A model generated the notes under the pieces. It had not been told where the DNA came from and ran no database searches. It saw only the letters and a list, made by a program, of their open reading frames with translations. Below are positions 6,163 to 59,908 of a DNA stretch of 64,000 nt, piece by piece. Each line of letters begins with the position of its first letter. Position 1 is the first letter of the stretch. The stretch comes from Deltaproteobacteria bacterium (lineage in GTDB: Bacteria; Myxococcota_A; Polyangia; Fen-1088): positions 64,001 to 128,000 of the forward strand of contig JANRKS010000040.1 of assembly GCA_033763315.1 (NCBI GenBank), in the 5' to 3' direction. The translations under genes and the position numbers were made by a program.

Positions 6163-7053
6163 GTGAACGACGACATCCGCGCGCAAGCAAACTATTACGA
6201 CCGGTTTCGACGGGTGCTTGTGTACATTGATAACCACCTGCAAGAAGCGGTGGACCTCGAAGAGCTCAGCCACGTGGCGGCCTTTTCGAAGTTTCATTTT
6301 CATCGGCAGTGGAGCCAGATGTTTGGCATCACCGTCGCGAAATACATCCAGCTGCGCCGGCTTAAGCGCGCGGCGTTTCAGTTAGCGTTTCGGTCGGCGG
6401 AGCCCGTGCTGCACATCGCCTTTGACAGCGGGTTCGAAGGTCCCGAGGCGTTCGCGCGTGCGTTTAAACGCAACTTCGGACAAACGCCTTCTGAGTTCAG
6501 GGCCGAACCAGAATGGCAAAAGTGGCAACAGGTATACGCAACATCAAATCAGCTGAGGGAGGCACACATGAGCACGCAATGGCAGATCCACGATGTGAAG
6601 ATCATAAACTTCTCCGAAACGCCTGTGGCGGCACTCACGCACACGGGCGATCCGCAGCTCATTGGCGATTCGATTCGGCGCTTCATTGAGTGGCGCAAGC
6701 AGAACCGTTTGCCCCCACGCATAAGCGCCACGTTCAACCTTGTGTACGACGATCCCGATGACGTGGACCCAACACAGCACCGGATGGATCTTTGCGCGGC
6801 CACAAACCAACCGGTTTTGCCTAACGAGTTTGGCGTCGTCGCCAAAACGATTCCCGCCGGGCGTTGCGCTGTCCTTCGCCACGTGGGATCAGATGACACC
6901 TTGAGAAACACCGTGGGATTCCTTTACCGCCAGTGGCTGCCGCAAAGCGGGCACGAGTGCCGCGACTTCCCGCTCTTCTTTCAACGTGTGTCGTTCTTCC
7001 CCGATGTGCCCGAGCACGAGGCCATCACCGACGTGTTCTTGCCGCTGCGTTAG
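6163..7053 (+). CDS. AraC-family transcriptional regulator with C-terminal GyrI-like effector domain
   Basis: AAFSKFHFHR..F, IAFDSGFEGPEAFARAFKR.FGQTPSEFR; C-terminal IPAGRCAVLRHVG, LY.QWLPQSG. Confidence 0.92.
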   Translation: MNDDIRAQANYYDRFRRVLVYIDNHLQEAVDLEELSHVAAFSKFHFHRQWSQMFGITVAKYIQLRRLKRAAFQLAFRSAEPVLHIAFDSGFEGPEAFARAFKRNFGQTPSEFRAEPEWQKWQQVYATSNQLREAHMSTQWQIHDVKIINFSETPVAALTHTGDPQLIGDSIRRFIEWRKQNRLPPRISATFNLVYDDPDDVDPTQHRMDLCAATNQPVLPNEFGVVAKTIPAGRCAVLRHVGSDDTLRNTVGFLYRQWLPQSGHECRDFPLFFQRVSFFPDVPEHEAITDVFLPLR

Positions 7054-7266
7054 TGGCAGTTGCGGCAGAAAAACAACACACCTGTGTCGCTTTCTTGAGC
7101 CGCGGGGCCGTGATGTGCGTCTCCGGCACATCGATCGGGTTGTGCGCCTTGGCCGCGCCATTTTAGACGAAGCGCCTCAGAAACCTGAGGTTCCAGATGG
7201 CGTGGGGGGGCGCCCAACAAGACCGAAAACCGTTGAATAACAAGCACATACAGTCAACGGCGGCGT

Positions 7267-7282
7267 TGGAATGGCCCTTGCT
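7267..7282 (+). promoter_or_regulatory. Putative sigma54 -24/-12 promoter of the Kazal lipoprotein gene
   Basis: TGGAAT-GGCCC-TTGCT (GG-N10-GC), followed by GGAGAGG and ATG 7304. Confidence 0.5.
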
Positions 7283-7303
7283 GAGCAACATGGAGAGGTT
7301 CAC

Positions 7304-8668
7304 ATGCAGTACTTAACTCGATCCCAAGTTCAATTCGCTTTTTGTCTTGTCGCCCTTGCAGCCTGCGGTGGCAACGGCTCCCCCACAGACGAACCCTGCG
7401 ATTCTTCGCTGCAAAACTGTGGTGGAGGGGGCGCCGGTGGAGACGGCGGCGCCTCGGGCGGCTTTCCTATCAAAGGGGGAGCGGGCGGCTCACGTGGCAG
7501 CTTCGGTGGGGCGGGCGGGGGCGTGGCATGCAGCGACTCTTCTCAATGTGGCAAGAGCCAGTTTTGTGATCTTAACCTCAATTCGTGTGGCTTGATCGCG
7601 TTCCTGGTGGCGCCAGCAGAGGACAGGGCCGATCCCCCTCTTGGGGGCTCCACAGGCGTGGCAGCACCGCTTCCGCCCGGGTTCTGCGTGAGCCGGCCCG
7701 ACGCATGCGATTTGAACTTCGCACCCGTGTGTGGCTGCGATGGCAAAACTTACGGCAACGATTGTGAGCGCCAACGCGCCGGCGTCTCGAAAGCTTCTGA
7801 AGGCAAATGTGATGCGCAAGTGATCGTCGTTGGGCCCGGCGGCACATGCGGCACCTTCGACGGCCGCAACACCTTGGTGTGCGATAAAGGTCTATTCTGC
7901 GAAGCGCCCGCGAACCAATGCTCCGCACCTGGCGGCCGAGGCACGTGCCAAGCAGCGCCACAGGTGTGCACAGCGATCAGCGCACCCGTGTGTGGTTGCG
8001 ATGGCAAAACGTATGGCAACGACTGTGGCCGTCGCGCCGCTCGGCAGTCGTTGGCACATACCGGCGCGTGTTCGCCAACCACCGCGCGTCTGGGCGAAGC
8101 TTGTGGACCAGCGCTTGGCATCACGTGTGAACGAAGCCTGGTGTGTGATCCGCAACCAAACCAGTGCAACAACGGCAAGTTCGTGGGCACGTGCACCGCA
8201 CAGAACTTGATGTGCACCAAAGAATTTGTACCCGTGTGTGGATGCGACGGCCGCACGTACGGCAACGAGTGCTTGCGTCTGTCGGCAGGCGTGACCAAGA
8301 ACCACGATGGCGAATGCAAAGGCGCCACGCGCTTTGTGGAAAGCGGCATTTGGGGTGGCCCGCACATTGAGCTTGCGGCCAAGGATCCGAAGAGCGGCGG
8401 CTCCTTAACGTTTGACTGCGGCCGCGCTGACATCGTCTCGCCGCTTGAAGTTGATGGCAACGGCAACTTCATGTGGAAGGCGCGCTACATCTTGACCGGT
8501 GGCCCCACCCAGGCAGCGCCCCCCGCCCCCCTGGCGAGAGACGCGATCATCACGGGAGCCGTGGGCGGAAAACAAATGAAGCTGAGCATTCAGATCGCTG
8601 GCTCGATGGACCAACCATCCTTCGCACTCACCTTCGGCGTTAACGGCAGCTTCAACTTCTGCCTCTAA
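7304..8668 (+). CDS. Lipoprotein with three Kazal-type serine protease inhibitor domains
   Basis: Lipobox LAAC, Gly-rich linker, three copies of C..xxxPVCGCDG[KR]TYGN[DE]C, C-terminal WGGPH..FDCG domain. RBS GGAGAGG before 7304. Confidence 0.88.
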   Translation: MQYLTRSQVQFAFCLVALAACGGNGSPTDEPCDSSLQNCGGGGAGGDGGASGGFPIKGGAGGSRGSFGGAGGGVACSDSSQCGKSQFCDLNLNSCGLIAFLVAPAEDRADPPLGGSTGVAAPLPPGFCVSRPDACDLNFAPVCGCDGKTYGNDCERQRAGVSKASEGKCDAQVIVVGPGGTCGTFDGRNTLVCDKGLFCEAPANQCSAPGGRGTCQAAPQVCTAISAPVCGCDGKTYGNDCGRRAARQSLAHTGACSPTTARLGEACGPALGITCERSLVCDPQPNQCNNGKFVGTCTAQNLMCTKEFVPVCGCDGRTYGNECLRLSAGVTKNHDGECKGATRFVESGIWGGPHIELAAKDPKSGGSLTFDCGRADIVSPLEVDGNGNFMWKARYILTGGPTQAAPPAPLARDAIITGAVGGKQMKLSIQIAGSMDQPSFALTFGVNGSFNFCL

Positions 8669-8684
8669 GACGCTTCAATGGCGC

Positions 8685-8729
8685 AAACACCCACCGGGGG
8701 CACAACACTGTGTTCCTGCGTGGGTGTTT
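8685..8729. terminator. Bidirectional intrinsic terminator-like hairpin
   Basis: AAACACCCAC...GTGGGTGTTT inverted repeat between convergent genes. Confidence 0.6.
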
Positions 8730-8745
8730 ATCTTTGGAGCCGCGG

Positions 8746-8949
8746 CTAACGCGGCGGCTTTGCGGGGCAGGTGATCTTCTTCGCTTTCGGTTTGCCATCG
8801 TAACGCTTGCCCACTTCGCCGATGATCACTTCATCACCTGGCTCTGGGGAAAAATTGCAGGCCTCAAAGTCAAACCACAGATCGCCGTGTTCGGGATGAT
8901 CGATGTAACCAAACCCTTGCTGCTTGTTGAACGACTTGATCTTTGGCAC
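8746..8949 (-). CDS. Divergent cold-shock domain protein
   Basis: GGGAGG RBS then GTG; IKSFNKQQGFGYI (RNP1), DLWFDF (RNP2-like), PGDEV...GKPKA. Confidence 0.75.
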   Translation of the reverse strand: MPKIKSFNKQQGFGYIDHPEHGDLWFDFEACNFSPEPGDEVIIGEVGKRYDGKPKAKKITCPAKPPR

Positions 8950-9052
8950 GCGATCCTCCCTGGTGTTGCGCGAACGTGAAGCACCAGCGTAAGGGCGCCG
9001 CGAAGGGCCTGTCAAATGGCGCCACGCAACCACATTCGCTTACCTGCACAGC

Positions 9053-9418
9053 TCAGCGTTGCATTTCGATGATCATCAGCTCCATCGATTTATCGGATTC
9101 GTTCAGATCTCCGTGCAGCTCATTCGCCGGATCGGCGGGCAACCAATATGCGTGGCCTGTTTTGAGGCGCAAGCGGCGGGTGGGGCCTTTTTGTTGAGGC
9201 AGGGCCAAGGTGCCGCCTTGCAACGCCACAACCACCCGTCCGTGCTCATGTCGGTGCATTCCTAACCCTTCGTGTGGCGCCAAAATCGTCTTCCACACGC
9301 GGACGTCGGCGTTCTCGAACTGCGCGATCAAGGGTTGCGAGCGAGGCACCGCGAACGAGCGGGCCCCCCAACCAAGCGCCAGACCGCAAGCCAGCCACGC
9401 CATTGTTGTCCGGTTCAT
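9053..9418 (-). CDS. Secreted cupin-domain protein
   Basis: Signal peptide; FENADVRVW, MHRHEH, LPAD...HGDLN cupin motifs. Alternative start 9448. Confidence 0.8.
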   Translation of the reverse strand: MNRTTMAWLACGLALGWGARSFAVPRSQPLIAQFENADVRVWKTILAPHEGLGMHRHEHGRVVVALQGGTLALPQQKGPTRRLRLKTGHAYWLPADPANELHGDLNESDKSMELMIIEMQR

Positions 9419-9436
9419 GCGATAAAGTGTAGGCGC

Positions 9437-10333
9437 ATGAGGGGCCAAACTTCCACACTCTTAACGCTGCTTGGCGCTTGGATGTGCTTTCCGCTGGCCC
9501 ACGCCTCGCCGCATCCAGATGTGGGGATATTCTCTGAGCTCGACAGCGCCGTGGTGGTAACCCTGCCTCCGGCCTCGGCCACCGTACAGCCGCGCCTGCA
9601 AGTGGATCCGCAACGAAGCTTGTTGCTGTTTTACGATGCTGATTTTCCGCTCAAAGCGTTCGCCTTACAGCCCTCCGCCAAAGCCATTCGTGAACCCACC
9701 GATGTGCTCGCGGTTTTGCCGGCGCCAGCGGTGGCTGAGCTTGCACCATGGCTAAAATACCAGCCGGCCGTGATTGTTAAGACGGGGCCTTCGCGCGGCA
9801 ACGGGAGCGATCTCGATGGCGACGGCATTCCGAACCCGCTTGATGTTCTGTTGGGCGCGCGCAAGTTGGTGCTGAACCACGCCGCGTACACGGAGGGGTA
9901 TTACCGCATTCCCTTCCCGCAGGGCGATGTGCCGCGCAACGTGGGCGTGTGCACCGACACGATCATTCGCGCCTTTCGCAACGCGGGCCTTGACCTGCAA
10001 GCGCGTGTGGCCGACGACATTCGCAAGGCGGGCACGGCGTACGGCATCCGCAAGCCCGACACCAACATCGATCACCGTCGCGTAAAGACGCTGCTGGTGT
10101 GGTTTCGCCGCCACATACCGCAGATCAAGGACACAACGCTGCGGCCAGGAGACGTGGTTTTTCTGGATACGTTTCCCACGCGCGCGGGTCCCGACCACGT
10201 AGGCATCATTTCTGATCGGCTCGCGCCAAGCGGCTTGCCGTTTGTGATCAACAACTGGACGGTGGGGTACAAAGAAGATGAGATGGATCTACTGCCGTCC
10301 ATTCCTGTGACCCACCGATTTCGTTTGCCATGA
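9437..10333 (+). CDS. Secreted DUF1287-family protein (NlpC/P60-like Cys/His)
   Basis: Signal peptide; Y..IPFPQGDVP...GVCTD.IIRAFR..GLDLQ, DTNIDHRRV, PGDVVF, HVGIIS. DLDGDGIPN Ca-binding-like motif upstream. Confidence 0.85.
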   Translation: MRGQTSTLLTLLGAWMCFPLAHASPHPDVGIFSELDSAVVVTLPPASATVQPRLQVDPQRSLLLFYDADFPLKAFALQPSAKAIREPTDVLAVLPAPAVAELAPWLKYQPAVIVKTGPSRGNGSDLDGDGIPNPLDVLLGARKLVLNHAAYTEGYYRIPFPQGDVPRNVGVCTDTIIRAFRNAGLDLQARVADDIRKAGTAYGIRKPDTNIDHRRVKTLLVWFRRHIPQIKDTTLRPGDVVFLDTFPTRAGPDHVGIISDRLAPSGLPFVINNWTVGYKEDEMDLLPSIPVTHRFRLP

Positions 10334-11379
10334 AACGACGGCAGTGGCTCACACACGCGGCGGTTGCGGCGCTTGCACGCACAAGCTTGGCCGCGGCGCC
10401 CAAGCGGTGGCCCACGCCCAACCTCGCGGAGGATCAAGTGCTTCGGTGCGTGGCGGGCATCCGACCTTACCGCAAAGGCGGCGTGCGCATCGAACGTGAA
10501 GAAGCGGCGGGAAAAGCACTGGTTCACAACTATGGCCACGGCGGTGCGGGCTACACATTGTCGTGGGGCAGCGCCAAGGCTGCGGTTGATTTGGTGAAAC
10601 ACGAAAGCCGTGGTGCCTGTGCGGTATTGGGCGCGGGGGTGGTGGGCCTCTCCACTGCGGCGTTGCTTCTGGAGGCGGGCTTTGCGGTGCACGTTTACGC
10701 GCAAGCCTTTCCACCACACACCACATCCGACGTTGCTGGCGCCGAGTGGTCGCCCGACATCGTTGATCGCGGTGAGACGCCCGCACAGCGCCGCCGCTTC
10801 GATCAGATGCTGCTCGACTCTTGGCACCGCTTTATGCAATTGCGTGGCGACAGGTGGTGCGTTTACCCGCGCGCAATCTACGAAGCCGATGACGTTATCA
10901 GTGGCTTGGATGAACTTCCGGCGGGAATCATGGCGCCGGGCAAACGCGTGCGGCACCTGCCCTTTGCCCCCCACCACGCGGGCCGCGTTTTTCAAACCTT
11001 ACTCATCGAAGCGCCGGCATATCTGCAAACGTTGGTGGCTTACATCAAGGGCAAGGGTGCTGTGCTGCACGAGCGAAGCATTCACAACGCAGCGGATGTG
11101 TCGGCCCTCAAAGAACGTTTGGTGTTCAATTGCATTGGCATGGGCGCTGCGGCCGCGTTCGCGGATGAGGCGATGGTTCCCATTCGCGGCCAGTTGGTTC
11201 ATTTGCGCCCTCAAGCCCTGCCGTACATTCTGGATCACGTTGATGGTTATGTGCTGTCACGCAGGGACGCGCTGATCTTGGGCGGTTCGTTTGAAGCTGG
11301 CGTGGACGATCCTCATCCCGACAACGCCACCCGCGCGCGCATCCTGCAAGTCAACCGCCGCTTCTTCGCACGCTCGTGA
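10330..11379 (+). CDS. Tat-exported FAD-dependent D-amino-acid oxidase-like protein, circularly permuted
   Basis: KRRQWL twin-arginine signal; GIRPYR and HNYGHGGAGYTLSWGSA precede GAGVVGL, TTSDVAGA, NCIGMGA and PIRGQ. ATGA overlap with the DUF1287 gene. Confidence 0.88.
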   Translation: MKRRQWLTHAAVAALARTSLAAAPKRWPTPNLAEDQVLRCVAGIRPYRKGGVRIEREEAAGKALVHNYGHGGAGYTLSWGSAKAAVDLVKHESRGACAVLGAGVVGLSTAALLLEAGFAVHVYAQAFPPHTTSDVAGAEWSPDIVDRGETPAQRRRFDQMLLDSWHRFMQLRGDRWCVYPRAIYEADDVISGLDELPAGIMAPGKRVRHLPFAPHHAGRVFQTLLIEAPAYLQTLVAYIKGKGAVLHERSIHNAADVSALKERLVFNCIGMGAAAAFADEAMVPIRGQLVHLRPQALPYILDHVDGYVLSRRDALILGGSFEAGVDDPHPDNATRARILQVNRRFFARS

Positions 11380-49024: not shown

Positions 49025-50971
49025 TTAACGCAGTAGCAATTGCAGTGCCGTCGTGGCCGTGGCCACGCCCTCGGCGATGCGTTCAAGTTGGACCCGCGTG
49101 GGAACGTCGCCCGCCAGTGCGGTTCGTTCAACCAAGGCCAAACGCCGCGCAAGTACGCGCGCGCCGATCATGCGCGCGTGCCCCTTCAAGTCATGCGCAA
49201 CCGCGGCCACATGATTTGAATCACCGAGCTCAGCTTGCTCTTGCAACTTGCGCAGCGATTGTGTCATCGCTGCGCAAACGCGCGGACCGAAAGTTTGCAA
49301 CAGGCTTGCGCCGCCCACGCTGGCGCTTTGCTTAAGGTCGTTGATTACCTTCGCATCTAGCACCGGCTTAGGCTTCTTTCGCGCGGACCGCACGCGCCGC
49401 GGCTGCGATTGGAGCAACAAGCGCTTTAGATCCGTCAAGCGCACGGGCTTGCCCAAGAAACCATCCATGCCGGCGTTCGAACAAGCTTGCCGATCTTCGG
49501 CCAGGACGTTGGCCGTCATCGCGTAGATGCGGGGCTGGCCGAGCGCACTTTGCCGAAGCTTCGTTGTTGTTTGTAGACCGTCCATGTCGGGCATCCGCAG
49601 ATCCATGAGCAACAGGTCGTAAGGCACTCGCTTTGCCATCTGCACCGCGGTGCGACCATTGGCAGCCACGTCGCTTGGAAAACCTAAGTGCCGAAGCATG
49701 GCCTGAGCCAATTCACGCGCCTCCGCATTGTCGTCCACAACAAGAATGCGGAGCTTCGGTTGATGCGCCGGTGGCTCCGGCTCGTAGGTGGGAGCCGGCG
49801 GCCTTGCTTGGCTTGCCCGCGCTTGAACAAACGGGACAACGGCCACGAAGCACGCCCCCTTGGGCTTTTTGCGGAATGTGAGCGAGCCGCCCATCGCCGT
49901 GGCCAGCTTGTGGCTAATCGCCAGGCCCAAGCCGCTGCCGCCGTAGCGCCGCGTGGTTGAAGCGTCGCCTTGCGAAAATGGCTCAAACAAACGCCTCGCG
50001 GCCTTGGCGTCGATGCCTATGCCGGTGTCAGATACCGCAAACGTGACATGTACACGCTGGCCCTCGCCCACGCGCGCGCGAACGTCTACGGTCACCGCAC
50101 CTCGTTCGGTGAATTTGACGGCGTTGTTTACCAAATTGGCAAGGATCTGTTGCACTCGATAGCTGTCACCGACCACAGAAAGCCGAGCCGAACGCGCCAA
50201 CTTCACATCTAAGGCTAGGCGCTTCTCTTTTGCTTTCGGTTTGATCGCTTCCACCACCGCCTGCACAACATCGACCACATCGAAACGGTGTCGCTCCAAT
50301 TGCGGCGTCACAGCTTGCAGTGATGAGAAATTCAAGATGTCATCAACGATCTTCAGCAGCATCTCGTTCTGCTGGCTCAAGATCTTAAGATAGCGTCGTT
50401 GTTCCGACGTCAGCTCCGTGCGCTCAATAAGTTGGGCATAACCCGAGATGCATTGGATAGGCGATCGTATCTCGTGGCTCATCGTGGCCAAAAAATCGCT
50501 TTTGGCGCGGTCAGCTTCTTCAGCGCGGGTCTTTGCTTGCCGAAGATCATCTTCGGCGCGCTTTCGCGCATCAACATCGCGGACGCTCGTGCGATACCCC
50601 TGCCATGTGCCGTCCGCGGCATACAAGGATTGCCACGAGATGGCGCCCCAGCGCGTCCCCCCATCCTTGCGCAGAATGCGGAACTCTAAATCATTGCCGC
50701 TTTGCCGCTGGGCAGCGCTTTGCAGCGCCTTGCGCACACGCGGGCGGTCGTCCTTATACACGAGGCGCAAAGGATAGTTGCGCATCGATAAGCACGCATG
50801 AACATCGAACCCTGTCATGCGCTCGACGGCGGGATTGATCCACCGCGTGACCCCCTGCGGGTCAACCCAGCTTTCCCAGTCGTACGTGTAATCGGCGATG
50901 GCGCGGAACAGCGCTGTTAGTTGTGGATCGGCAAACGCCCCCTGCGAGCTCACGATCGATTTCGGCATCAC
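49025..50971 (-). CDS. PAS hybrid histidine kinase with receiver and HPt domains
   Basis: PAS/PAC, FLATMSHEIRSP, NL.NNAVKFT, DTGIG, YGGSGLGL, receiver MDLRMPDMDG, HPt AHDLKGHA..IGA. Confidence 0.93.
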   Translation of the reverse strand: MMPKSIVSSQGAFADPQLTALFRAIADYTYDWESWVDPQGVTRWINPAVERMTGFDVHACLSMRNYPLRLVYKDDRPRVRKALQSAAQRQSGNDLEFRILRKDGGTRWGAISWQSLYAADGTWQGYRTSVRDVDARKRAEDDLRQAKTRAEEADRAKSDFLATMSHEIRSPIQCISGYAQLIERTELTSEQRRYLKILSQQNEMLLKIVDDILNFSSLQAVTPQLERHRFDVVDVVQAVVEAIKPKAKEKRLALDVKLARSARLSVVGDSYRVQQILANLVNNAVKFTERGAVTVDVRARVGEGQRVHVTFAVSDTGIGIDAKAARRLFEPFSQGDASTTRRYGGSGLGLAISHKLATAMGGSLTFRKKPKGACFVAVVPFVQARASQARPPAPTYEPEPPAHQPKLRILVVDDNAEARELAQAMLRHLGFPSDVAANGRTAVQMAKRVPYDLLLMDLRMPDMDGLQTTTKLRQSALGQPRIYAMTANVLAEDRQACSNAGMDGFLGKPVRLTDLKRLLLQSQPRRVRSARKKPKPVLDAKVINDLKQSASVGGASLLQTFGPRVCAAMTQSLRKLQEQAELGDSNHVAAVAHDLKGHARMIGARVLARRLALVERTALAGDVPTRVQLERIAEGVATATTALQLLLR

Positions 50972-50980
50972 CCCACCAGA

Positions 50981-51607
50981 TTAAAGCCACCCGCGTTCTA
51001 TGGCATGCCTCGTGACGTCCGCGGCGTTGCTGGCCCCTAGCTTCTTCATCACATGCAAACGATGGTTGCCTACCGTCTTGACGCTCAACTGCAGCTCAGA
51101 AGCAATCGCCTTGCTGCTTTTGCCCCGAGCGATCATCATCGCGACCTGCTTCTCGCGCACCGTGAGCTCATCCCCGGCGGGCCCATGAGTTGTCAAGCGC
51201 AGCAACCGCAGCGACGTTGGGCAATAGTAGGCGCCCCCACGAGCCACAGTTTCTACGGCCGTCTGCAGGTCCGCCAACGACACACCCTTCATAACGATGC
51301 CGTGAACGCCAAGCTGTGACGCTTGTTGCGTAACCTCCAAACGCTCACTCGCCGTTAGCACCAACACGCGTGTGTGAGGCAGTTTGTTTTTCAAGCGCGC
51401 CACGACGTCTAGGCCACTGCCATCGGGCAGCACCACATCCACAACCAACAACGCTGGGGCGAGTGCAGGCAGTTCTGCGACGGCCGCCGCAGCCGTCGAG
51501 AACTCACCAACGATCTGTGCGCCCAGCTTGGTGACAAGGATCTGGGCCAGCATCTCGCGGAAGATCGTCTGATCGTCCACAAGGGCTATGCGTAGAGGTG
51601 CGGGCAA
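50981..51607 (-). CDS. NarL/LuxR-family response regulator
   Basis: LVDDQ.IFR, VDVVLPDGSG, LT.RE.QV...IA.G.SSK.IA..L.LSVKTV.NH. TTG start uncertain. Confidence 0.9.
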   Translation of the reverse strand: MPAPLRIALVDDQTIFREMLAQILVTKLGAQIVGEFSTAAAAVAELPALAPALLVVDVVLPDGSGLDVVARLKNKLPHTRVLVLTASERLEVTQQASQLGVHGIVMKGVSLADLQTAVETVARGGAYYCPTSLRLLRLTTHGPAGDELTVREKQVAMMIARGKSSKAIASELQLSVKTVGNHRLHVMKKLGASNAADVTRHAIERGWL

Positions 51608-51725
51608 AGGTGAATCCGAGGAAATGAAAGCTTCTAGGGTACAAAACCCGGCCGACCTGGGGTGTATTCCCCATACCGACCGCAGGGCGTCACCGTCAGA
51701 GTTTACTGAAACCAAGGAGGATCAT

Positions 51726-52133
51726 ATGAACACTCTCAAAGTCGCTGTCCTGACGCTGGCCCTACCCCTTTTGGGCGCGAACACCGCCGCCGCCGCGATG
51801 ACCTGCGGTACAAGCGACGCCCTCCAAGGCGTTACCCACGTGAAACCCCTACAGGAAACCTTTAACGTCGGCAAGGCGGAGCTCACTCGTCGCGCGGGCG
51901 CGCGGCTTTTCATTCCTGCCGAGGCTGGAATGTCGGTGCCATACTTGCAGCGCCAGCTGAACTGCCGCGTGCAAACGGCCGGTGGCGGGCAAAACGATCC
52001 GTTGTCCGTACCGAAGGTCAAAGCCACCGTCTCCGCGGCTGGTGAATACTTTGTTGTTGATCTGCGGGCGTCCACATTGGCCGATGCAAAAGAAGTGCAA
52101 CGCCGGTCAGAGCTGTTGTTGCAGGGCAAGTGA
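51726..52133 (+). CDS. Small secreted hypothetical protein
   Basis: AAGGAGG RBS, signal peptide, GA.LFIPAEAG.S..YLQR.LNC...DPL.V. Confidence 0.8.
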   Translation: MNTLKVAVLTLALPLLGANTAAAAMTCGTSDALQGVTHVKPLQETFNVGKAELTRRAGARLFIPAEAGMSVPYLQRQLNCRVQTAGGGQNDPLSVPKVKATVSAAGEYFVVDLRASTLADAKEVQRRSELLLQGK

Positions 52134-52144
52134 GGTAGCGCTGG

Positions 52145-53059
52145 TCACATCCTGTCATCGGTGCCGTCATCTGATGCGGTTCCGATGATGGGATTGGCGC
52201 TTGTGGGCAACATGGCGGCCTCGATGGGCCGCATGTCATTGTCGAAGCCTCGGAAGGCAACGGTGCGTGCCCCACGCAGCTGAGCGAGATCGTAAAGCTG
52301 GTTGTAGGCCGTAAACACGGCGGGGATCTGACGCAAGCGTTCCAACGCTCGTCCTACAGCCAGCAAGTATTGTGATTTGGCCTCTGCAACGAGCGTGGCC
52401 ACACGTTTGGAAGTCTCGGCCTCCAACGCCGCAGCATCCAAGCGCCCCTTTTCGACAACAACCGCGCGGGCTCGTTCCAAGCGCGTGGCCACTGTGCCGA
52501 AGACTTGACGTGAAACCTCTGGCAAGAGCGACACGTGGCGGATGAACACGCGTTCCACTTTCACGCCCCAACGCAACGTTTCACCAGATACGTCTCGCTC
52601 CAGCAGAGCCCCAAGTTCGCTGCGATCGTCAAGGATCTGTTGAAAGTCGCGGCTCCCGAGAATCGACATCGCCGCGTGAACCACCAAGTTTTGCGTGGCC
52701 TGATCCCAGTCTTCCACCGCGAACAACGCCTTCTCAGCGTCCACCACGCGGACCTCAACCCACAAATCCGCCACCACCGTCGTTCCGCGCGCATCGTTGA
52801 TGTGCAGGTCGTGGATAATGCGAAAATCCAAGGCCCGCGATACGTGATGCACCTTCACCCACGGCAACCATTTGCCCGGCAGCACGTGCAGCCCAGGTTT
52901 TTCTAGCTTGGCGACGATTCTGCCAAAGCTCGTGACCAAAGCCACGTGCTCATCTTCGACAGCCACACCGAAGCCCCGGGCGATACGACCCAAAACAGAC
53001 AAGCCAGCGGCACCCGCGGCCGCCCCGCCAAACAACATCAACCAATCCTGGGCGTTCAC
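52145..53059 (-). CDS. SPFH/band-7 domain protein
   Basis: N-terminal TM, FGR....LEKPGLH, HINDARGTTVVADL...RVVD..KALF.VED, WGVKVERV.I, coiled-coil; GTGA overlap with the upstream SPFH gene. Confidence 0.88.
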   Translation of the reverse strand: MNAQDWLMLFGGAAAGAAGLSVLGRIARGFGVAVEDEHVALVTSFGRIVAKLEKPGLHVLPGKWLPWVKVHHVSRALDFRIIHDLHINDARGTTVVADLWVEVRVVDAEKALFAVEDWDQATQNLVVHAAMSILGSRDFQQILDDRSELGALLERDVSGETLRWGVKVERVFIRHVSLLPEVSRQVFGTVATRLERARAVVVEKGRLDAAALEAETSKRVATLVAEAKSQYLLAVGRALERLRQIPAVFTAYNQLYDLAQLRGARTVAFRGFDNDMRPIEAAMLPTSANPIIGTASDDGTDDRM

Positions 53060-53934
53060 AGCGTTTTTCCTTCGTTTAGGTACATGGTGCGTGACTCAGA
53101 AAGCACCTCGGCCTTCCTGCGTTCAACGTAATCGCGCAGCACTCCGGCTTCGTGCAGAACTGCCAGATTTCGCCCCAGCTCCTGTATTTCATTCTCAACC
53201 GCCGCAGCTTTGGCGCGGGCAATCTCCACGCCGCGGTTGGCGGCCATCAGCTTCTGCGCGCATTCACCTTCCGCACGAAACCGCAAGCCATCCGCTTCGG
53301 CCCGCGCGCTCATGACGGCATTCAAAGCGTCAGCCATCTCTTCGGGAGGATGGATGTCGGTGATGTCCACGGCCTCGAAGTGCACGCCGTACCGATCGCC
53401 CAGTTCAGCCTTGGCGAAGTCACCGATGCGTTTGTTAAGCAGTTGCCGATCTCGACGCACCAGACCGAACGATCCGCCCACATCGTCTTCAATCGTTGTG
53501 ATGTCGGTGGTGTGAGGAGGCGATTTCACGTTCGCAATCTCGTTGCGCAGGAGGCTCGAAAACAAGCCCGCCACGTGTTCCTTGCGATGGACAAGCCCGA
53601 ACAGATACTTCGCGATGCCGTCGCGTTGAGGAGCGTAGCGAAGCATTGACTGGAGACGAATCACCGTTCCGTCGGCCAACATCATCGGTTCTGCGCCGTG
53701 TTGACCGCCCAAGGTCACGAGCTGTTCACGCAGCGAAACCACACGCACCTCGTCGAATGACCATTTGAGGTGAGCGCCAGGACCAAACAGCCGTAGGCTG
53801 CCGTCAGGATTGTGCAACGCTGCCCCAAAACGCAGCACGACCGCGGCGCAGCCTTCTTCCACCCGAAAGCCGCAATCCTTCGCCATCCAAGCCACAAACA
53901 AGCCAACACCCAGCACGATCCCTAAGATAAACAT
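53056..53934 (-). CDS. SPFH/band-7 domain protein
   Basis: N-terminal TM, AVVLRFG, GPG.H.KW..DEV..VSLREQ, YGV.FEAVDITDI.PP.EM..ALN.VM.A, coiled-coil; AAGGA RBS 24 nt after the SulP stop. Confidence 0.88.
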   Translation of the reverse strand: MFILGIVLGVGLFVAWMAKDCGFRVEEGCAAVVLRFGAALHNPDGSLRLFGPGAHLKWSFDEVRVVSLREQLVTLGGQHGAEPMMLADGTVIRLQSMLRYAPQRDGIAKYLFGLVHRKEHVAGLFSSLLRNEIANVKSPPHTTDITTIEDDVGGSFGLVRRDRQLLNKRIGDFAKAELGDRYGVHFEAVDITDIHPPEEMADALNAVMSARAEADGLRFRAEGECAQKLMAANRGVEIARAKAAAVENEIQELGRNLAVLHEAGVLRDYVERRKAEVLSESRTMYLNEGKTL

Positions 53935-53958
53935 TCTCGTCGATCCTTTCGCAGACGG

Positions 53959-56085
53959 TCAAAAACGTTCGACAGACGCGCGCGCCCACGCCTCGCCCCA
54001 AACCGGCGGTTCGTCAATGGCGGTGGTTAACCGTGGCGTGGTGTGGCCCGCTTGCACCATGCGTCGATAAGCCGCCGCCAGGCCTCGATTCACATCAACC
54101 ACGTCTTCGTTGAAATGTTGATGTGCCATCGTCACGGGCGGCAAGGCATCAGCTTTCGCCTGTGTGTCTATGATGCTTCCGTGAGGCACAAAACGATTGT
54201 CCGGGACCTCAACACCCACGACGACGGCCCCAATGCCTATGGAACAATGGCTGCCCACAACAGCGTCGTGCACAACCGCTTTGAACCCAATGAAAGTGTC
54301 GTCGCCCACATACGAAGGCCCATGAACAAGCGCATCGTGGGCCATAGAAACATTGCGGCCCACGTACACAGCCCAGCGTTCGCCGCCGACGATCACGTGC
54401 TTCTGCTTCAAGGCGTGAATCACCACGCCGTCTTGAATGTTTGAATTGGGCCCAATGAAGAAGGGGGCGCCCTCATCGGCACGGACCGAACTGCCCGCGG
54501 CCACGTGAACGTTATCGCTCAAGATCACTTGCCCAATGACTGTGGCTTGTGGATGTACGAAGGCGGTTGCAGGAATGAAGGGCTGGCTCCTTACGTGCGC
54601 GATCCACTCGCTGGCGCTGCCGGTGGTGTCCGCTCGCAGTTTGCGCGCACCCGCACGCTCAACAGGAAGCACCGCCCTGATGCCGGGAGGGTGAGGTGAA
54701 GTCATCGCCTCTAGGGCAGCTTTGGCGTCCTTGCGGTGGAACAGCAGATAGTCGAGCGCGGAAATCACGAGGCCTGCCACGAGGCCCAGCATCAGATGAC
54801 CCGTGACGGTGCCAGCGGCGGTGACCAAGAAGGCCAAGGCCTGCAGCTTCGCCGTTCGCACCAAGTGAACCAGGGTGGGCACATCCACCAGCCGCACACC
54901 GATGACGCACAGAAGGCCCGCCAGAGCCGCCAGTGGCACCCGTGCGATCAGCGAACCCATCAGTAAAACCGCGGCGCCCAAGAACACCGCGTGCAACATG
55001 GTGGCCACCTTGGTGCGAGCACCGCTCTGCACGTTCACGCCACTGCGAACAACAACACCGGAAACGGGCATCCCCGTAAACAGCCCTGAAGCAATGTTCG
55101 CCAACCCCTGTCCTAGCAACTCCAAACTCGGGTGGTGAGGGCGGATTACGTTCTTACCTTGCATGCGGTCCACCGCGCGCGCGGCAAGCAGCGACTCTGC
55201 GGACGCCAGAAAAGCGATAGGCAAAGTTGCCGTGATCAATTCAACGAGGCGCTCCGTGGGAACCAGCGGAAAGCGAAACGGTGGTAGTGAAGACGGCACA
55301 TCGCCCACGCGCGTGATGTCCCACCCGACGTAGTTCGCGATGAAGGTGACAAGGCCAGCGCCTACGATTGCCGCCGGAAAGCGTTTCCATCGCGACGTTC
55401 CAACGATCAACAAGGCCACCGCGAGGCCCGATACCACCGCCAGCCATTCAACTTTGTGCAACCAGTCTGGCTTGTGCAGCATCATCGCCAGCTCATAGAC
55501 GCGGTAGTCGAAACCCAGCAGTTCAGGAATTTGCTGGTCCAGCAGTTTGATGCCAACGCCCGTCGTGAACCCTGCGAGCACACTCTCAGGGACGTGCTTC
55601 ATCACGTGACCTGCGCGTGTGAACGCGAGCAAGAGCTGGAACGCCCCCACCATCACAGCCGCCAAAGCGACGCCCACCGGACCAAAACGCAAGGCCACGA
55701 CAGCCACGATGGATGACAACGCGGCCGCGGGGCCCGTGACCTGCAAAGGTGCGCCGCCCACGAATCCGGCCACGAAGCCGCCGATCGCCCCCGCCACTAA
55801 ACCGGCGGCGGGTGGCAAACCGCTGGCCACCGCCAACGCAAGATTAAGCGGCAAGGCCACGGCGGCCACCGTCAGTCCCGCCAAGACGTCTTGGGGTAGA
55901 CTTTTTTGCGCCACCACGTCTGCGAAAGAACCGGTGAAAGACCGATACATCGATCGCCAATCTTGGTACAGCGGCTCCCAGATCGTTCGCTCTTTCAGAA
56001 CCGGCCCTCGGCTAACCCGCCGGGGTTGAACAGGCGGATGATGACCCCGGGTCGCCTTGGGTGTATCGGTCGAACTTGGAATCAC
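53959..56085 (-). CDS. SulP-family anion (bicarbonate) transporter fused to a gamma-class carbonic anhydrase
   Basis: SulP motifs DVLAGLTVAAVALPL.LALAVASG, QVTGPAA, GFTTG, EL.GQG.AN..SG...GMP.SGV.VRS..N..SGA.TK. C-terminal hexapeptide beta-helix with RADEG, SNIQDGVVIHAL, SMAH..LVHGP, VV.VN..LA.AY. No STAS domain. Confidence 0.92.
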   Translation of the reverse strand: MIPSSTDTPKATRGHHPPVQPRRVSRGPVLKERTIWEPLYQDWRSMYRSFTGSFADVVAQKSLPQDVLAGLTVAAVALPLNLALAVASGLPPAAGLVAGAIGGFVAGFVGGAPLQVTGPAAALSSIVAVVALRFGPVGVALAAVMVGAFQLLLAFTRAGHVMKHVPESVLAGFTTGVGIKLLDQQIPELLGFDYRVYELAMMLHKPDWLHKVEWLAVVSGLAVALLIVGTSRWKRFPAAIVGAGLVTFIANYVGWDITRVGDVPSSLPPFRFPLVPTERLVELITATLPIAFLASAESLLAARAVDRMQGKNVIRPHHPSLELLGQGLANIASGLFTGMPVSGVVVRSGVNVQSGARTKVATMLHAVFLGAAVLLMGSLIARVPLAALAGLLCVIGVRLVDVPTLVHLVRTAKLQALAFLVTAAGTVTGHLMLGLVAGLVISALDYLLFHRKDAKAALEAMTSPHPPGIRAVLPVERAGARKLRADTTGSASEWIAHVRSQPFIPATAFVHPQATVIGQVILSDNVHVAAGSSVRADEGAPFFIGPNSNIQDGVVIHALKQKHVIVGGERWAVYVGRNVSMAHDALVHGPSYVGDDTFIGFKAVVHDAVVGSHCSIGIGAVVVGVEVPDNRFVPHGSIIDTQAKADALPPVTMAHQHFNEDVVDVNRGLAAAYRRMVQAGHTTPRLTTAIDEPPVWGEAWARASVERF

Positions 56086-56186
56086 GGTCGCCGCAGCTTA
56101 TGCGGGTAGAGAGCAAATTACCAGCGTTCCTCTCGCGCCTTTTAAGAACAGTCCACGCGACACCCGGCCCAAGGCCGAATAAGGCA

Positions 56187-56216
56187 AAGGGCGCAGCACC
56201 TATGTGCCGCGCCCTT
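56187..56216. terminator. Hairpin terminator between the Cys-rich lipoprotein gene and the SulP operon
   Basis: AAGGGCGCAGCAC-ctat-GTGCCGCGCCCTT. Confidence 0.6.
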
Positions 56217-56237
56217 ACTTTTCAAAGCATCGTCTTC

Positions 56238-57656
56238 CTATCGGCAGGTTTGCGTGACGTTAGCCGCATCGGATCCAACGCAGCCCACGTTGGCCAACCA
56301 CGAACAGGTTCTGTACGTGCCCTTTTGCCCGCATTGCGGCACCTTGGTGATCCATCCCGAGCGGAATGAGCACAACAACCTCGACGCGGCACCAACGCAG
56401 GTGGCAGACGCCAACGATGAATCGAACGGCTCCTCCACTTTGTTGCAGTTGTAATCGAACGAGCCCGAGCCCACCAAACAGAGGTTCAAATTATTGGGGC
56501 AGTAGGCAGTCGGGAAAAACGCGGTTTGAGCGGGGTTGGCGGAAGCCGCGCGCGGACCACAATCGATCGTATCCACAGCCACGGGCTTGGTGCGCGTGTA
56601 ACCCGCGGGGCAAACACCGCTCGCCGTGATGGCACCTGTCACCGATGAGGCGTAGCCGTCCTTGTCGGTGTCAACGTAGCATTCGCAAGACGGCGCCACA
56701 GTGTCCGACGTAGCGGTCGAACAATCGTTGTCCTTGCCGTCTTTGCACTCAAACGCGCCCGGGAAGACAGCCGGATCCGCGTCGTTGCAGTCAACGTTGC
56801 ACGCCTTTCCGTCTTTATCGCCGTCGCCATAACTGCAGGCGCCCGTGGCGGGATCGCACATGCCCGACATTGTGCAAGTCGCCGCCGTACACACCACCGC
56901 CGTACCGGCAGCACACTTGTGCGTGTTGGTGTCGCAAGTCTCGTCGCCGTTGCACTTGTTGCCGTCGTTGCAGTCGGCGCTGGCAGCACAAGTGAATTTA
57001 CATTCACGGGTGCAACCGTCGTCATCATTGGCGTTGCCGTCGTCGCACTGTTCACCGGCATCCACCGCACTGTTGCCACAGCTGGCGGTCACGCATGCGT
57101 TGTTGCTGCACTTGCCTGCGGCACCACCTGGCAACATGCACGCTGAGCCCGCGGTCGCTGGGGTGCCGGCTTTACAAACGGGTTTCAGAGGCATCGTCTT
57201 GTCGCAAGTCTCAACGCCTGTGCAAGCATTGCCATCGCTGCAATCAGAATCTGCCTTGCAATCAAACCGACAGGATGAGCAGCCATCGCCAGTAACTTCG
57301 TTGCCGTCTTCGCAGTCTTCGCCTTGAGCCACGTCAACGTAGCCATCGCCGCAGCTGGAAGCGACACAGATCTTCTGCAAACACACACTGCCAGCGGCAC
57401 ACACGGTGCCATCGGCCTTGTCCGTGCATTCGACTTCAAGGATGGCGTCTTGCTGTGTGTCCCCTGAAGCTAGAGCGTCACTGCCGCTGTCCAACAAGGT
57501 GACCGTGCCATCAGTGGTGGACCCGTCAGGAGAAACAGCGCCATCAACATTGTTATCGTCGTCCGAGCCACAGGCGCCTATGACGAAAAGGCTGAGGACT
57601 GCAAGACCGCTTAAACCTAAAGGCAACCAAGTTTGTCGACTGCTTGACGTACGCAT
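56238..57656 (-). CDS. Cys-rich surface lipoprotein (Myxococcus Cys-rich/DUF4215 repeats plus MopE-like metal-binding motif)
   Basis: GGAGG RBS, lipobox IGAC; CGDG....GEDCEDGN...GDGCSSC, CGN..VD.GEQCDDGN, DCND.DP.VFPGA.E.CDGKDNDC. Confidence 0.88.
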   Translation of the reverse strand: MRTSSSRQTWLPLGLSGLAVLSLFVIGACGSDDDNNVDGAVSPDGSTTDGTVTLLDSGSDALASGDTQQDAILEVECTDKADGTVCAAGSVCLQKICVASSCGDGYVDVAQGEDCEDGNEVTGDGCSSCRFDCKADSDCSDGNACTGVETCDKTMPLKPVCKAGTPATAGSACMLPGGAAGKCSNNACVTASCGNSAVDAGEQCDDGNANDDDGCTRECKFTCAASADCNDGNKCNGDETCDTNTHKCAAGTAVVCTAATCTMSGMCDPATGACSYGDGDKDGKACNVDCNDADPAVFPGAFECKDGKDNDCSTATSDTVAPSCECYVDTDKDGYASSVTGAITASGVCPAGYTRTKPVAVDTIDCGPRAASANPAQTAFFPTAYCPNNLNLCLVGSGSFDYNCNKVEEPFDSSLASATCVGAASRLLCSFRSGWITKVPQCGQKGTYRTCSWLANVGCVGSDAANVTQTCR

Positions 57657-57837
57657 CGTTCCTCCACAACAGAAGTTAGGGCCTGACCGGCGCCGAAATT
57701 TGGCGCGCCTCATCGTACGCTCAGAATGGCCATCAATAAAGCGGATGGATGCGAAAGAGCGGCACACGTACACGCACATCGCCCACAAGGCAAGGCTTCA
57801 GTCGCCCGAGACTGCCCACGGCCGGGTGAAACGTTCT

Positions 57838-58213: not shown

Positions 58214-59908
58214 CTAGACCACCGTCACAGGCGCGAGCGCTTGCAGCCGCTCCCAAGCGCGCGCCAACACCGACTGCAGATCATCAAGTGAGAACGGCTT
58301 GCTGAGAAAATCGTTCATGCCTGCGTCAATGCAGGCTTGCCGATCTTCGCTGCGCGCGTTCGCAGTCAAGGCCACAACTTGCGTGGGCCGCGATTGACCT
58401 TCACGTTGGCGCAAAAGCCTGGTGGCCTGCATGCCATCAAGAACCGGCATCTGCACATCCATGAACACAACGTCGTAGGATTGCGCCTCCAAAGCACGCA
58501 AGGCTGCGGCGCCATCGTCGACGGCACGCGACGAATGCCCAAGCTTTTCCAAAAACAGCATCGCCAGGCGTTGGTTCACCGCATTGTCTTCCGCCACCAG
58601 GACGCGCAGCGGTGGTAAGACCAGCGCGCCCACCCCTGGGTTGGTTGCGGTGGCCATCAGCTTTGGCACGGTGGCGGCCGCAAAGCTGAACCGGAACGTG
58701 GCACCTTGGCCAAGCGCGCTTTGCACGCTGATGTCGCCGCCCATGCGCCTCGCCAGCTGCTGGGCGATCGCCAGCCCCAAACCCGAGCCACCGAAGCGAC
58801 GCGTGGTTGAGCTATCGGCTTGAACGAATGGCTCGAAGATCACGGCCTGTTTCTCGATCGCAATGCCGACGCCCGTATCCCTCACAGTGATCACAAGTCC
58901 AGCGGCCTCTGTGAACGCGCGCACGCTCACGCTTCCAACCACCGTGAATTTCAGGGCATTGCCGATGAGATTCGAAATCACCTGGCGCACGCGCAACGGG
59001 TCGCCCAAAACGGTCGAAGGCACGTCAGCGCTGACATCAAGGCTCAAATTGATTCCGCGACGAATGGCATCGGGTTTGAACAGCGACAGCACATTTCCCA
59101 GTTCTTCAGTCGGTGAAAACGCCACACTTTCAAGTTCGAGCTGCCCTGATTCGATGCGGGACGCGTCCAGAAGATCGTTGAGGATGCGAAGTAGGTAGGA
59201 GCCAGACTGCTTGATGGTTTGTAGGTACTCCCGAACTGTCGCCGAGGTGGGCTCCATCAAGGCCAACTCAGTCATGCCCAGCACACCGTTCATGGGCGTT
59301 CGAATTTCATGGCTGATGTTGGCGAGAAATTGCGCTTTCGCCGACAAAGCCGCCACCGCGGCTTCACGGCTACGCTCCAAGGCACACATAGCGTCCGCGC
59401 GAACGATCGCCGATGCCACGTGCGCACCCAGCAGCTCAAGCAAGGCGATGTCTTCCTCAGAGAACGGAAGAGGCTGCAACCGCGAGGCGCCCAGGGCCCC
59501 CACGATCGTATCACCTGCGCGCAAAGGAACAGACACGGTGGCATGCAGGCCCATGTGCCGCAGAGGCTGAAGAATTGGCTCCGTGCAATCGGGATCCTGC
59601 AGATTGTTGACGAGCAAAATTTCTCCCCGCACGATCACGCGCTCGATGATTGGGTTTGAAGCGGGCGACGCGCGTTTCACAAAAACGTCGCGCGCGTCAC
59701 CCCTGACCACCCGCAGCACCAAGTCCTCGCCTTCCAAAGTGCCCACGGTCGCGCGATCTGCCAACAGGAGGGCTAAAATCGCCTCGGCCACGTGGGGCAG
59801 CATCTCGTCGATCGAGCTCGCACGACTGATCCGAACCCCAAAATCATTCAAGAGTCGCAGGGACTCATTCGTGGTGCGCAATTCGCCTTGTGGCGGGGCC
59901 GGGGGCAT
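58214..59908 (-). CDS. GAF hybrid sensor histidine kinase/response regulator
   Basis: GAF (VPL..GD.IVGAL...F...DI.LL), FLANISHEIRTPMNG, NALKFT, FGGSGLGL, AEDN.VNQ, MDVQMP. Confidence 0.93.
   Translation of the reverse strand: MPPAPPQGELRTTNESLRLLNDFGVRISRASSIDEMLPHVAEAILALLLADRATVGTLEGEDLVLRVVRGDARDVFVKRASPASNPIIERVIVRGEILLVNNLQDPDCTEPILQPLRHMGLHATVSVPLRAGDTIVGALGASRLQPLPFSEEDIALLELLGAHVASAIVRADAMCALERSREAAVAALSAKAQFLANISHEIRTPMNGVLGMTELALMEPTSATVREYLQTIKQSGSYLLRILNDLLDASRIESGQLELESVAFSPTEELGNVLSLFKPDAIRRGINLSLDVSADVPSTVLGDPLRVRQVISNLIGNALKFTVVGSVSVRAFTEAAGLVITVRDTGVGIAIEKQAVIFEPFVQADSSTTRRFGGSGLGLAIAQQLARRMGGDISVQSALGQGATFRFSFAAATVPKLMATATNPGVGALVLPPLRVLVAEDNAVNQRLAMLFLEKLGHSSRAVDDGAAALRALEAQSYDVVFMDVQMPVLDGMQATRLLRQREGQSRPTQVVALTANARSEDRQACIDAGMNDFLSKPFSLDDLQSVLARAWERLQALAPVTVV

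Follow-up and report, generated by a model that had tools for sequence, protein, structure and literature searches.

The described systems closest to the locus presented here are of three kinds: (i) SulP transporters joined to a beta-class carbonic anhydrase (CA); (ii) gamma-CAs of the Cam/CcmM type; and (iii) SPFH scaffold proteins. The locus lies on the minus strand, at positions 52145-56085, of a stretch of 64,000 nucleotides (hereafter, the window) from Deltaproteobacteria bacterium (Myxococcota_A; Polyangia; Fen-1088), which corresponds to positions 64,001 to 128,000 of contig JANRKS010000040.1 in assembly GCA_033763315.1. Three open reading frames (ORFs) form there a tight cassette in the following order: (i) a SulP-gamma-CA fusion gene; (ii) SPFH-A; and (iii) SPFH-B. 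This combination of known parts is real, tightly conserved and undescribed.

Regarding the joining of transporter and enzyme, Felce and Saier are said to have described, in 2004, SulP transporters fused to or paired with a beta-class CA. STAS-less sulP genes occur beside, or fused with, a beta-CA gene, as in the can2-sulP 'clade C' of Acidithiobacillus (PMC6458275, available passages). The genetic joining of a STAS-less SulP core to a CA is shared by the fusion of our cassette, and in both it is taken as a sign of a bicarbonate transporter that works with CA. Nevertheless, the enzyme is different: here it is a gamma-CA of the Cam/CcmM type, a class with a left-handed beta-helix and obligate trimers, and the fusion gives no Pfam match to Pro_CA (PF00484). 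Furthermore, two dedicated SPFH genes are present here, while none is mentioned in the available passages of PMC6458275, a comparison that concerns the text and not the loci themselves.

As for the enzyme, the CA domain of the fusion shares with Cam from Methanosarcina thermophila and with the N-domain of cyanobacterial CcmM (1qrf/3ow5 and 3kwc) the fold, the three His ligands and the catalytic residues. It is like CcmM in that it has neither the acidic-loop insertion of Cam nor a Glu at the E84 position. As differences, the domain stands here behind a transporter with 14 transmembrane (TM) helices; it has no RbcS-like repeats, and position 84 is a nearly invariant Lys. The context also departs from that of CcmM, as no carboxysome shell genes were found in this genome.

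Two side-by-side divergent paralogues are a feature that the cassette has in common with HflK/HflC-FtsH, prohibitin 1/2, erlin 1/2 and flotillin 1/2 (7vhq, 7wi3, 8rrh, 9vvj, 9bq2). These hetero-oligomeric cages and our two SPFH proteins are also alike in having a TM anchor, an SPFH domain, a long and a second helix, and a C-terminal segment, with structural matches over the full length. The differences from HflK/HflC are that (i) the equivalog scores fall far under the cut-off; (ii) the predicted orientation is cytoplasmic; and (iii) the linked client is a transporter-enzyme fusion instead of a protease.

In red cells, AE1 is said to cooperate with carbonic anhydrase. Human stomatin is a binding partner of AE1 and increases its Cl-/HCO3- exchange (PMC5383999, available passages); this case, in which an SPFH scaffold acts on an anion transporter that carries bicarbonate, is functionally the nearest to the cassette. 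Stomatin assembles into a 16-mer cup on the cytosolic leaflet and is found in association with SLC transporters (PMC13724742, available passages). By sequence, stomatin and QmcA are the closest to SPFH-B; however, they are homo-oligomeric, whereas two paralogues and a hard-wired client are found here. In addition, QmcA pairs with an NfeD protein (QmcA-YbbJ type), whereas the search of this genome gave no NfeD match.

The original prediction knew of no earlier description of this combination, and the openly searchable literature agrees: no paper was found in which SulP, gamma-CA and SPFH come together in a bacterium, and neither the fusion of a SulP protein with a gamma-CA nor the association of an SPFH pair with a transporter-CA fusion was found described, subscription journals and supplements being outside the search. 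As for a 2009 survey of SPFH operons in prokaryotes, the words sulfate, permease, transporter, carbonic and Myxococc are absent from its text.

The cassette and its conservation

The fusion gene (53959-56085, minus strand) encodes 708 aa when read from the GTG start at 56085. It is followed on the same strand by the genes for SPFH-A (53056-53934; 292 aa) and SPFH-B (52145-53059; 304 aa), both of them Band_7 proteins and the latter stomatin/QmcA-like. The spacer between the fusion and SPFH-A (53935-53958, minus strand) has 24 nt, with an AAGGA-like ribosome-binding site inside, and this gap is also short among related loci. The start of SPFH-B overlaps the stop of SPFH-A through GTGA, and the A-to-B junction is a 4-nt overlap at 60 of 74 loci. 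The ORF coordinates and the sequence thus bear out the three co-directional genes, the 24-nt gap with its ribosome-binding site and the GTGA overlap of the original prediction.

A scan with one genome per species returned 137 stretches with a relative of the fusion, 80 of which were kept as loci and 57 were not; relatives were taken within a length window, and the scan covers fused, not split, forms. The cultured species Cystobacter fuscus and Labilithrix luteola are among the carriers. SPFH-A lies directly after the fusion in all 78 loci with downstream DNA (the two further loci end at the fusion), and SPFH-B comes next in all 74 loci that extend far enough (four more end inside SPFH-A). The trio is also present in four of four extra loci taken from a sample of 401 genomes, two of them with only ~38% fusion identity. 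The original prediction had accepted that it would be refuted if the SPFH pair were not conserved beside homologous fusions; the pair is, in fact, decidedly conserved there. In a reduced all-against-all BLAST of the flanking regions, no conserved family was detected beyond close kin, only clade-local families and antisense shadow ORFs.

Co-occurrence was assessed in those 401 genomes, which represent an even sampling of the phylum. The fusion is present in nine of them, and the SPFH-A profile gives 317-475 bits in exactly the same nine genomes and in none of the 392 fusion-free ones, the next-best matches anywhere in the sample being <=148 bits; this lower tier is made up of paralogous SPFH pairs, A'/B' (see below). 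The SPFH-A match adjoins the fusion in eight of the nine genomes, and in the ninth a contig break lies between them. Against 1.84 billion cluster representatives, the same profile yields no more than 72 proteins with E<=1e-30 and, in consequence, SPFH-A is a small dedicated family. The distance matrices of the three proteins are correlated (r 0.82 for A-B, 0.72 for fusion-A and 0.71 for fusion-B), with 0 of 999 permutations as high. As evidence of binding, these correlations were set aside, since kin share their history and the correlations speak for co-inheritance only.

A full trio was also observed at positions 6869-10713 of locus L062, in a metagenome-assembled genome (MAG) labelled Bacteriovoracaceae, by its label a member of another predatory phylum, with 51% fusion identity. 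Within the phylum, the module is patchy (5 of 255 sampled genera). Both observations are a hint of horizontal spread or repeated loss of the module.

The fusion protein and the SPFH pair

The SulP/SLC26 TM core of the fusion (54736-55893, minus strand; residues ~65-450) is recognised by Pfam Sulfate_transp (PF00916) over residues 65-422 and model positions 3-380, with 219.6 bits versus a cut-off of 23.2 (E 7e-65). SLC26Dg (5da0, residues 23-388) and BicA (6ki1, 9-362) align across this core with E ~5e-36. No Pfam match to a STAS domain appears in the fusion at E<=0.01; the C-terminus is instead the gamma-CA domain. The SulP core is not specifically BicA-like, and it is the enzyme partner, and not the transporter sequence, that points to bicarbonate as a likely substrate.

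Databases call the fusion as 663 aa, from the ATG at 55950-55948. The 45 residues before this database start, M46, (55951-56085, minus strand) include WEPLxxDW, which is common to close homologues in the protein alignment and, hence, the longer GTG-started form may be the real one. At the other end of the core, a putatively cytoplasmic linker of ~47 residues, rich in basic residues (54595-54735, minus strand), leads to the enzyme. In its alignment columns, R470 and W494 are invariant, and G468 and A471 are kept in at least 90% of the sequences. In the SulP family the C-terminus is cytoplasmic, which would place the CA domain in the cytoplasm.

The gamma-CA domain of the Cam/CcmM type (54046-54594, minus strand; residues ~498-680) is supported by several searches: (i) in the PDB, CcmM 3kwc (E 2.4e-48) and Cam 1qrf (E 1.4e-46), the Cam chains matching fusion residues 500-675 at E 1.2e-46 to 3.7e-46; (ii) in NCBIfam, the CcmM N-domain (4.6e-58) and the Cam-type model (7.6e-56); and (iii) in Pfam, Hexapep repeats near the C-terminus of the fusion. 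Together, the Pfam, NCBIfam and PDB matches corroborate that the first gene encodes a SulP protein fused to a gamma-CA, as had been proposed. The identification of the domain as CcmM itself was rejected, because the CcmM model is matched only at positions 16-198 of 320, with 197 bits versus a cut-off of 550 and without the RbcS-like repeats, and no bacterial microcompartment (BMC) shell match exists in the genome.

Alignment to 3ow5 and 3kwc places the metal ligands at fusion H557, H583 and H588 (Cam H81, H117 and H122). From the alignment to Cam 3ow5, fusion R535, D537 and E538 correspond to Cam R59, D61 and E62; N549 and Q551 to Cam N73 and Q75; and N666 to Cam N202, all of which we take to have catalytic roles in Cam. 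None of these nine residues, ligands included, varies among the 44 aligned homologues. The CA domain is the best-conserved part of the cassette, with a mean pairwise distance of 0.29 (TM core, 0.38; SPFH proteins, 0.46-0.48), and we read this pattern as selection on catalysis.

The fusion finishes in a variable tail (53962-54045, minus strand) with the ending W(D/E)xxW ... (D/E)RF-COOH. Between the CA domain and this terminal motif, length and composition vary among fusions; however variable that stretch, F is the terminal residue of 78 of the 80 fusions, preceded by R in 71. The (D/E)RF-COOH tail looks like a candidate docking peptide, since it is a short conserved motif at the extreme C-terminus on a variable tether.

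Both SPFH proteins are in the Band_7 family (65.3 and 57.4 bits versus a Pfam cut-off of 23.6) and, as had been claimed, they are dissimilar, with no significant BLASTP similarity between SPFH-A and SPFH-B (best E 0.064). The nearest sequences to SPFH-B are QmcA and stomatin (E ~2e-13), and the sole significant PDB sequence match of SPFH-A is a weak one to HflC (E 4e-6, residues 13-74). The NCBIfam models of HflC (29.2 versus a cut-off of 427 and 23.1 versus 134.4) and HflK (20.1 and 29.5 versus 159.4) are well short of being reached. AlphaFold2 models of the two proteins, built on 44-row alignments, have pLDDT values of 87.6 and 88.7. Each model starts with a TM helix at the N-terminus, which is followed by an SPFH domain, a long helix of 65 (SPFH-A) or 64 (SPFH-B) residues and a second helix; SPFH-B has, in addition, a conserved AFRGF segment close to its C-terminus. 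In Foldseek, both models match over their full length subunits of HflK/C, stomatin, prohibitin, erlin, QmcA and flotillin (E 1e-17 to 1e-11), the best match of SPFH-A being the HflK/C entry 7vhq.

As modelled, both SPFH proteins have the full cage-forming architecture. From the matched long helices, the adjacent genes and the stop/start overlap kept at 60 of 74 loci, we infer that SPFH-A and SPFH-B would form an alternating hetero-oligomeric ring. A complex prediction with SPFH-A, SPFH-B and fusion residues 455-708 as the partner gave a score of 0.00 in both runs, made without controls, and counts neither for nor against binding.

The orientation of the pair was approached through charge counts, i.e., K+R before the TM helix versus K+R in the twelve residues after it, in 77 SPFH-A and 73 SPFH-B proteins (two loci with unresolved starts were left out). 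The means are 0.00 for SPFH-A and 0.27 for SPFH-B before the helix, versus 1.91 and 1.3 after it. K+R are commoner after the helix in 76 of 77 SPFH-A and 59 of 73 SPFH-B, the reverse is never seen, and none of the 77 SPFH-A has any K/R before the helix. HflK/HflC have periplasmic SPFH domains and an N-in topology, while QmcA faces the cytoplasm. According to the positive-inside rule, a rule of thumb, the charge bias predicts that both SPFH domains are on the cytoplasmic side, like those of stomatin/QmcA and unlike those of HflK/HflC, and on the same side as the CA domain. The likeness to HflK/HflC invoked by the original prediction would not, hence, extend to orientation, since both the flanking charges and the similarity of SPFH-B to stomatin/QmcA point to cytoplasmic, not periplasmic, SPFH domains. 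If the SPFH and CA domains are both in the cytoplasm, an A/B cup would sit over the enzyme domains.

Surroundings of the cassette and genome context

Upstream of the cassette there is a hairpin (56187-56216, minus strand) with a 13-bp stem, then UUUGCCUU. Its folding energy is -30.4 kcal/mol (z -3.6; 1 of 200 shuffles equally good), and it lies ~20 nt past the stop of the upstream gene (56238-57788, minus strand), which encodes a Cys-rich protein of 516 aa that carries DUF4215 repeats plus a metal-binding motif of the MopE type (Pfam). The hairpin is most likely the intrinsic terminator of this DUF4215/MopE-motif gene and, as such, it would isolate the cassette as its own transcription unit. 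The gene is not kept beside the cassette at other loci. On the other side, a convergent ORF (51588-52133, plus strand) ends 11 nt from the SPFH-B stop. The hairpin and the convergent gene, put forward earlier as the limits of the cassette, are both real.

The base composition of the cassette is that of its surroundings. Rfam gives no match at E<=1 within 51500-56600. Promoter- and terminator-like sites occur at chance level in the scan (1 versus 1.3 expected and 5 versus 7.0 expected, respectively). No conserved upstream block was observed in a 250-nt alignment around the predicted start (~220 nt upstream of the start) of 10 close loci. By reading of their translations, two long flanking ORFs (49025-51715 and 58214-59908, both on the minus strand) are hybrid sensor histidine kinase-like, and an ORF of 244 aa by the cassette is response regulator-like; these kinase-like and regulator-like ORFs are not kept beside the module at other loci.

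The genome has 7.6 Mb and is 91% complete. The fusion is its sole Sulfate_transp match, and one beta-CA (Pro_CA) gene and one alpha-CA gene are located elsewhere in it. Matches to NfeD (absent also from the cassette) and to BMC shell proteins were not found in this 91%-complete genome. The single RuBisCO-family gene lies on another contig and encodes a RuBisCO-like protein nearest to OiaX (3-oxo-isoapionate-4-phosphate decarboxylase), with 490 bits, under the cut-off of 700. At this site (genome G000, contig C9, locus L082, 3360-9077), the OiaX-like gene was observed together with genes for an OiaK-like kinase, a Gfo/Idh-type dehydrogenase and a sugar-binding protein; this gene content suggests a cluster for the catabolism of a branched sugar rather than for the fixation of CO2. 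Autotrophy was rejected, as the only RuBisCO-family gene is OiaX-like and a BMC shell was not found. These results agree with the heterotrophic context proposed earlier and widen the original observation on the window: NfeD and shell genes were not found even genome-wide, and the RuBisCO-family gene is on a different contig. A side observation concerns the alpha-CAs, for which this phylum has frames with two to four tandem domains (G141:C143:11653-14274 and other genomes), one example being a frame of 926 aa with four matches.

The same genome carries a paralogous SPFH pair, A'/B', on contig C17 (locus L081, 1999-3039 and 3042-3944), in the same order as A/B. A and A' share 28% identity (E 2.6e-23), and B and B' 24% (E 1.4e-15). 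A gene for a NapC/NirT-type multihaem cytochrome was noted 225 nt downstream of this pair. Pairs of the A'/B' kind exist in nine other sampled genomes as two-gene units, and none of their neighbours is conserved among nine loci (by crude ORF calls, which recover both genes in five and one in two more). The SPFH pair of the cassette seems to be a specialised branch of an older lineage of SPFH pairs.

Proposed mechanism and rival explanations

The reading that we regard as somewhat probable is that of a self-contained three-gene membrane module for CO2/bicarbonate handling, with an A/B cage over the transporter-CA, in a heterotrophic myxobacteria-like host. The SulP domain would move an anion, presumably bicarbonate, across the inner membrane, and the cytoplasmic gamma-CA, in place of a STAS domain, would trimerise and interconvert CO2 and HCO3- at the cytoplasmic mouth of the transporter, resulting in a hard-wired 'transport metabolon'. 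SPFH-A and SPFH-B, made in coupled amounts, would form an alternating cup or cage over the transporter patch on the cytoplasmic face; this assembly would confine, stabilise or tune the transporter-CA client, and the tethered (D/E)RF-COOH tail of the fusion would be a candidate anchor to it. Cam-type gamma-CAs must trimerise to form their active sites, while transporters of the SulP family are known as dimers. This mismatch suggests a higher-order assembly, which the ~47-residue linker could allow and the cage could hold. In terms of physiology, there would be two options: (i) import followed by dehydration, which consumes a proton and might serve acid tolerance or CO2 supply; or (ii) hydration of metabolic CO2 followed by anion export, which retains a proton and might help a predator that burns amino acids to dispose of CO2, or serve alkaline homeostasis. 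We infer the substrate and the direction, the enzyme activity, the cytoplasmic orientation, the hetero-oligomerisation, the contact between the fusion and the SPFH proteins, and the physiological purpose (capture or pH control).

A number of observations weigh against such a module. On the transporter side, the BicA equivalog model (NF050096, NCBIfam) gives 147.2 bits and does not reach its cut-off of 880; DauA (202 bits versus 614) and sulP TIGR00815 (199 versus 380) both score higher than BicA, although also far under their cut-offs; and, in the PDB sequence search, the SulP core is equally near the SLC26Dg 'sulphate transporter' entries 5iof/5da0 and 6ki1. On the enzyme side, the proton shuttle E84 of Cam is replaced in the fusion by K560, a Lys kept in at least 90% of homologues (CcmM 3kwc has a Gln at the aligned position), and a gamma-CA trimer fits awkwardly on a family of dimeric transporters. 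An uptake model might need a periplasmic alpha-CA; alpha-CA is present in only 2 of 9 module genomes versus 54 of 401 overall and, with no link to be seen, it was rejected as a partner of the module. Regarding the SPFH proteins, their orientation is deduced from the positive-inside rule and from likeness, and the weak match of SPFH-A is to HflC, which is periplasmic. Besides, the A'/B' pair has no adjoining SulP-CA gene, which indicates that such pairs do not need this client. Finally, the SPFH frames are split or truncated at three loci whose fusions are intact: SPFH-A is in two pieces in L021, the frames are fused or shifted in L033, and SPFH-B has 144 aa in L076, as a result of either MAG error or decay.

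Some of these points feed other explanations. The SPFH pair might be only a chaperone for the assembly or quality control of a mismatched dimer-trimer client, in the manner of HflK/C-FtsH or bacterial flotillins, with no role in carbon chemistry or its regulation; it would shield this client against proteolysis or assist in its folding. Such roles are known for SPFH families (PMC11222466, available passages), stand-alone A'/B' pairs without a conserved neighbour suggest a recruited general-purpose scaffold, and synteny and co-occurrence fit a chaperone as well as they fit the proposed module. Nevertheless, a general chaperone is not expected to become a dedicated subfamily, yet SPFH-A accompanies the fusion in 9 of 9 genomes versus 0 of 392 and the association is kept down to ~38% fusion identity; neither FtsH nor NfeD is encoded in the cassette as a partner, and the 91%-complete genome gave no NfeD match. 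A chaperone role alone is, in our opinion, rather unlikely. As regards the orientation, the SPFH domains could be periplasmic, like those of HflK/HflC, in which case the cage and the CA domain would be on different sides of the membrane, and the cage would surround nothing but the transporter's periplasmic face. HflC as the only significant PDB match of SPFH-A (E 4e-6), the weak NCBIfam HflC/HflK matches of both proteins and 7vhq as the best Foldseek match of SPFH-A speak for this arrangement. It is made improbable by the absence of K/R before the TM helix in 77 SPFH-A (mean 0.00 versus 1.91 after it) with a similar bias in SPFH-B, by HflK/HflC scores that are all far under the cut-off, and by the proximity of SPFH-B to the cytoplasm-facing QmcA and stomatin (E 2e-13). 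For stomatin, this orientation is documented in the available passages of PMC13724742.

The nature of the substrate allows for another explanation: the transporter would move a different anion (sulfate or a dicarboxylate), and the gamma-CA-like domain would be a structural or regulatory substitute for STAS, acting through trimerisation or CO2/HCO3- sensing, with no share in a flux of bicarbonate. Some gamma-CA-like proteins, e.g., those of the PaaY/CaiE type and some CcmM, have no CA activity. That the fusion is the only Sulfate_transp match of the genome, and that its TM core scores best with the DauA and generic sulP models and not with BicA, would also be in keeping with another anion. We deem it unlikely, given that all the catalytic and metal residues of Cam except E84 are invariant in 44 sequences and that the CA domain is the best conserved. 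Moreover, STAS-less SulP proteins paired with or fused to a beta-CA (PMC6458275, available passages) indicate that the pairing of CA and SulP arose more than once. Adjacency could, lastly, be a mere neighbourhood by descent with no functional meaning, as most loci come from one phylum and gene order is common to kin. This is hardly credible when (i) the trio is kept while the flanking genes on both sides are not; (ii) it persists to ~38% fusion identity and in the MAG labelled Bacteriovoracaceae; and (iii) the stop/start overlap occurs at 60 of 74 loci and presence and absence match exactly in 401 genomes.

The proposed CO2/bicarbonate-handling module might take a more elaborate form, speculative and, in our view, doubtful: a closed A/B chamber facing the cytoplasm that would enclose several transporters and trimerised CAs, with the (D/E)RF-COOH tail as a cargo-docking peptide, by analogy with the encapsulation peptides of carboxysomes and encapsulins. 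If true, it would be a membrane-attached nanocompartment in which CO2 and HCO3- are interconverted, and for the first time both a client other than a protease and a loading signal would be defined for a bacterial SPFH cage.

The roles and clients of bacterial SPFH proteins are largely unsettled beyond HflK/C-FtsH; in this case, the genomes themselves name the client. As the fusion and its dedicated SPFH pair are inherited together, and only together, the binding of scaffold and client, their stoichiometry, their orientation and the effect on activity are testable with three genes. The cassette would add a third joining of CA and anion transport, beside SulP plus beta-CA and the DAB/Mps-type systems, and it would do so in heterotrophic predators, not in autotrophs. 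It would also represent a bacterial counterpart of what stomatin, AE1 and carbonic anhydrase form in red cells.

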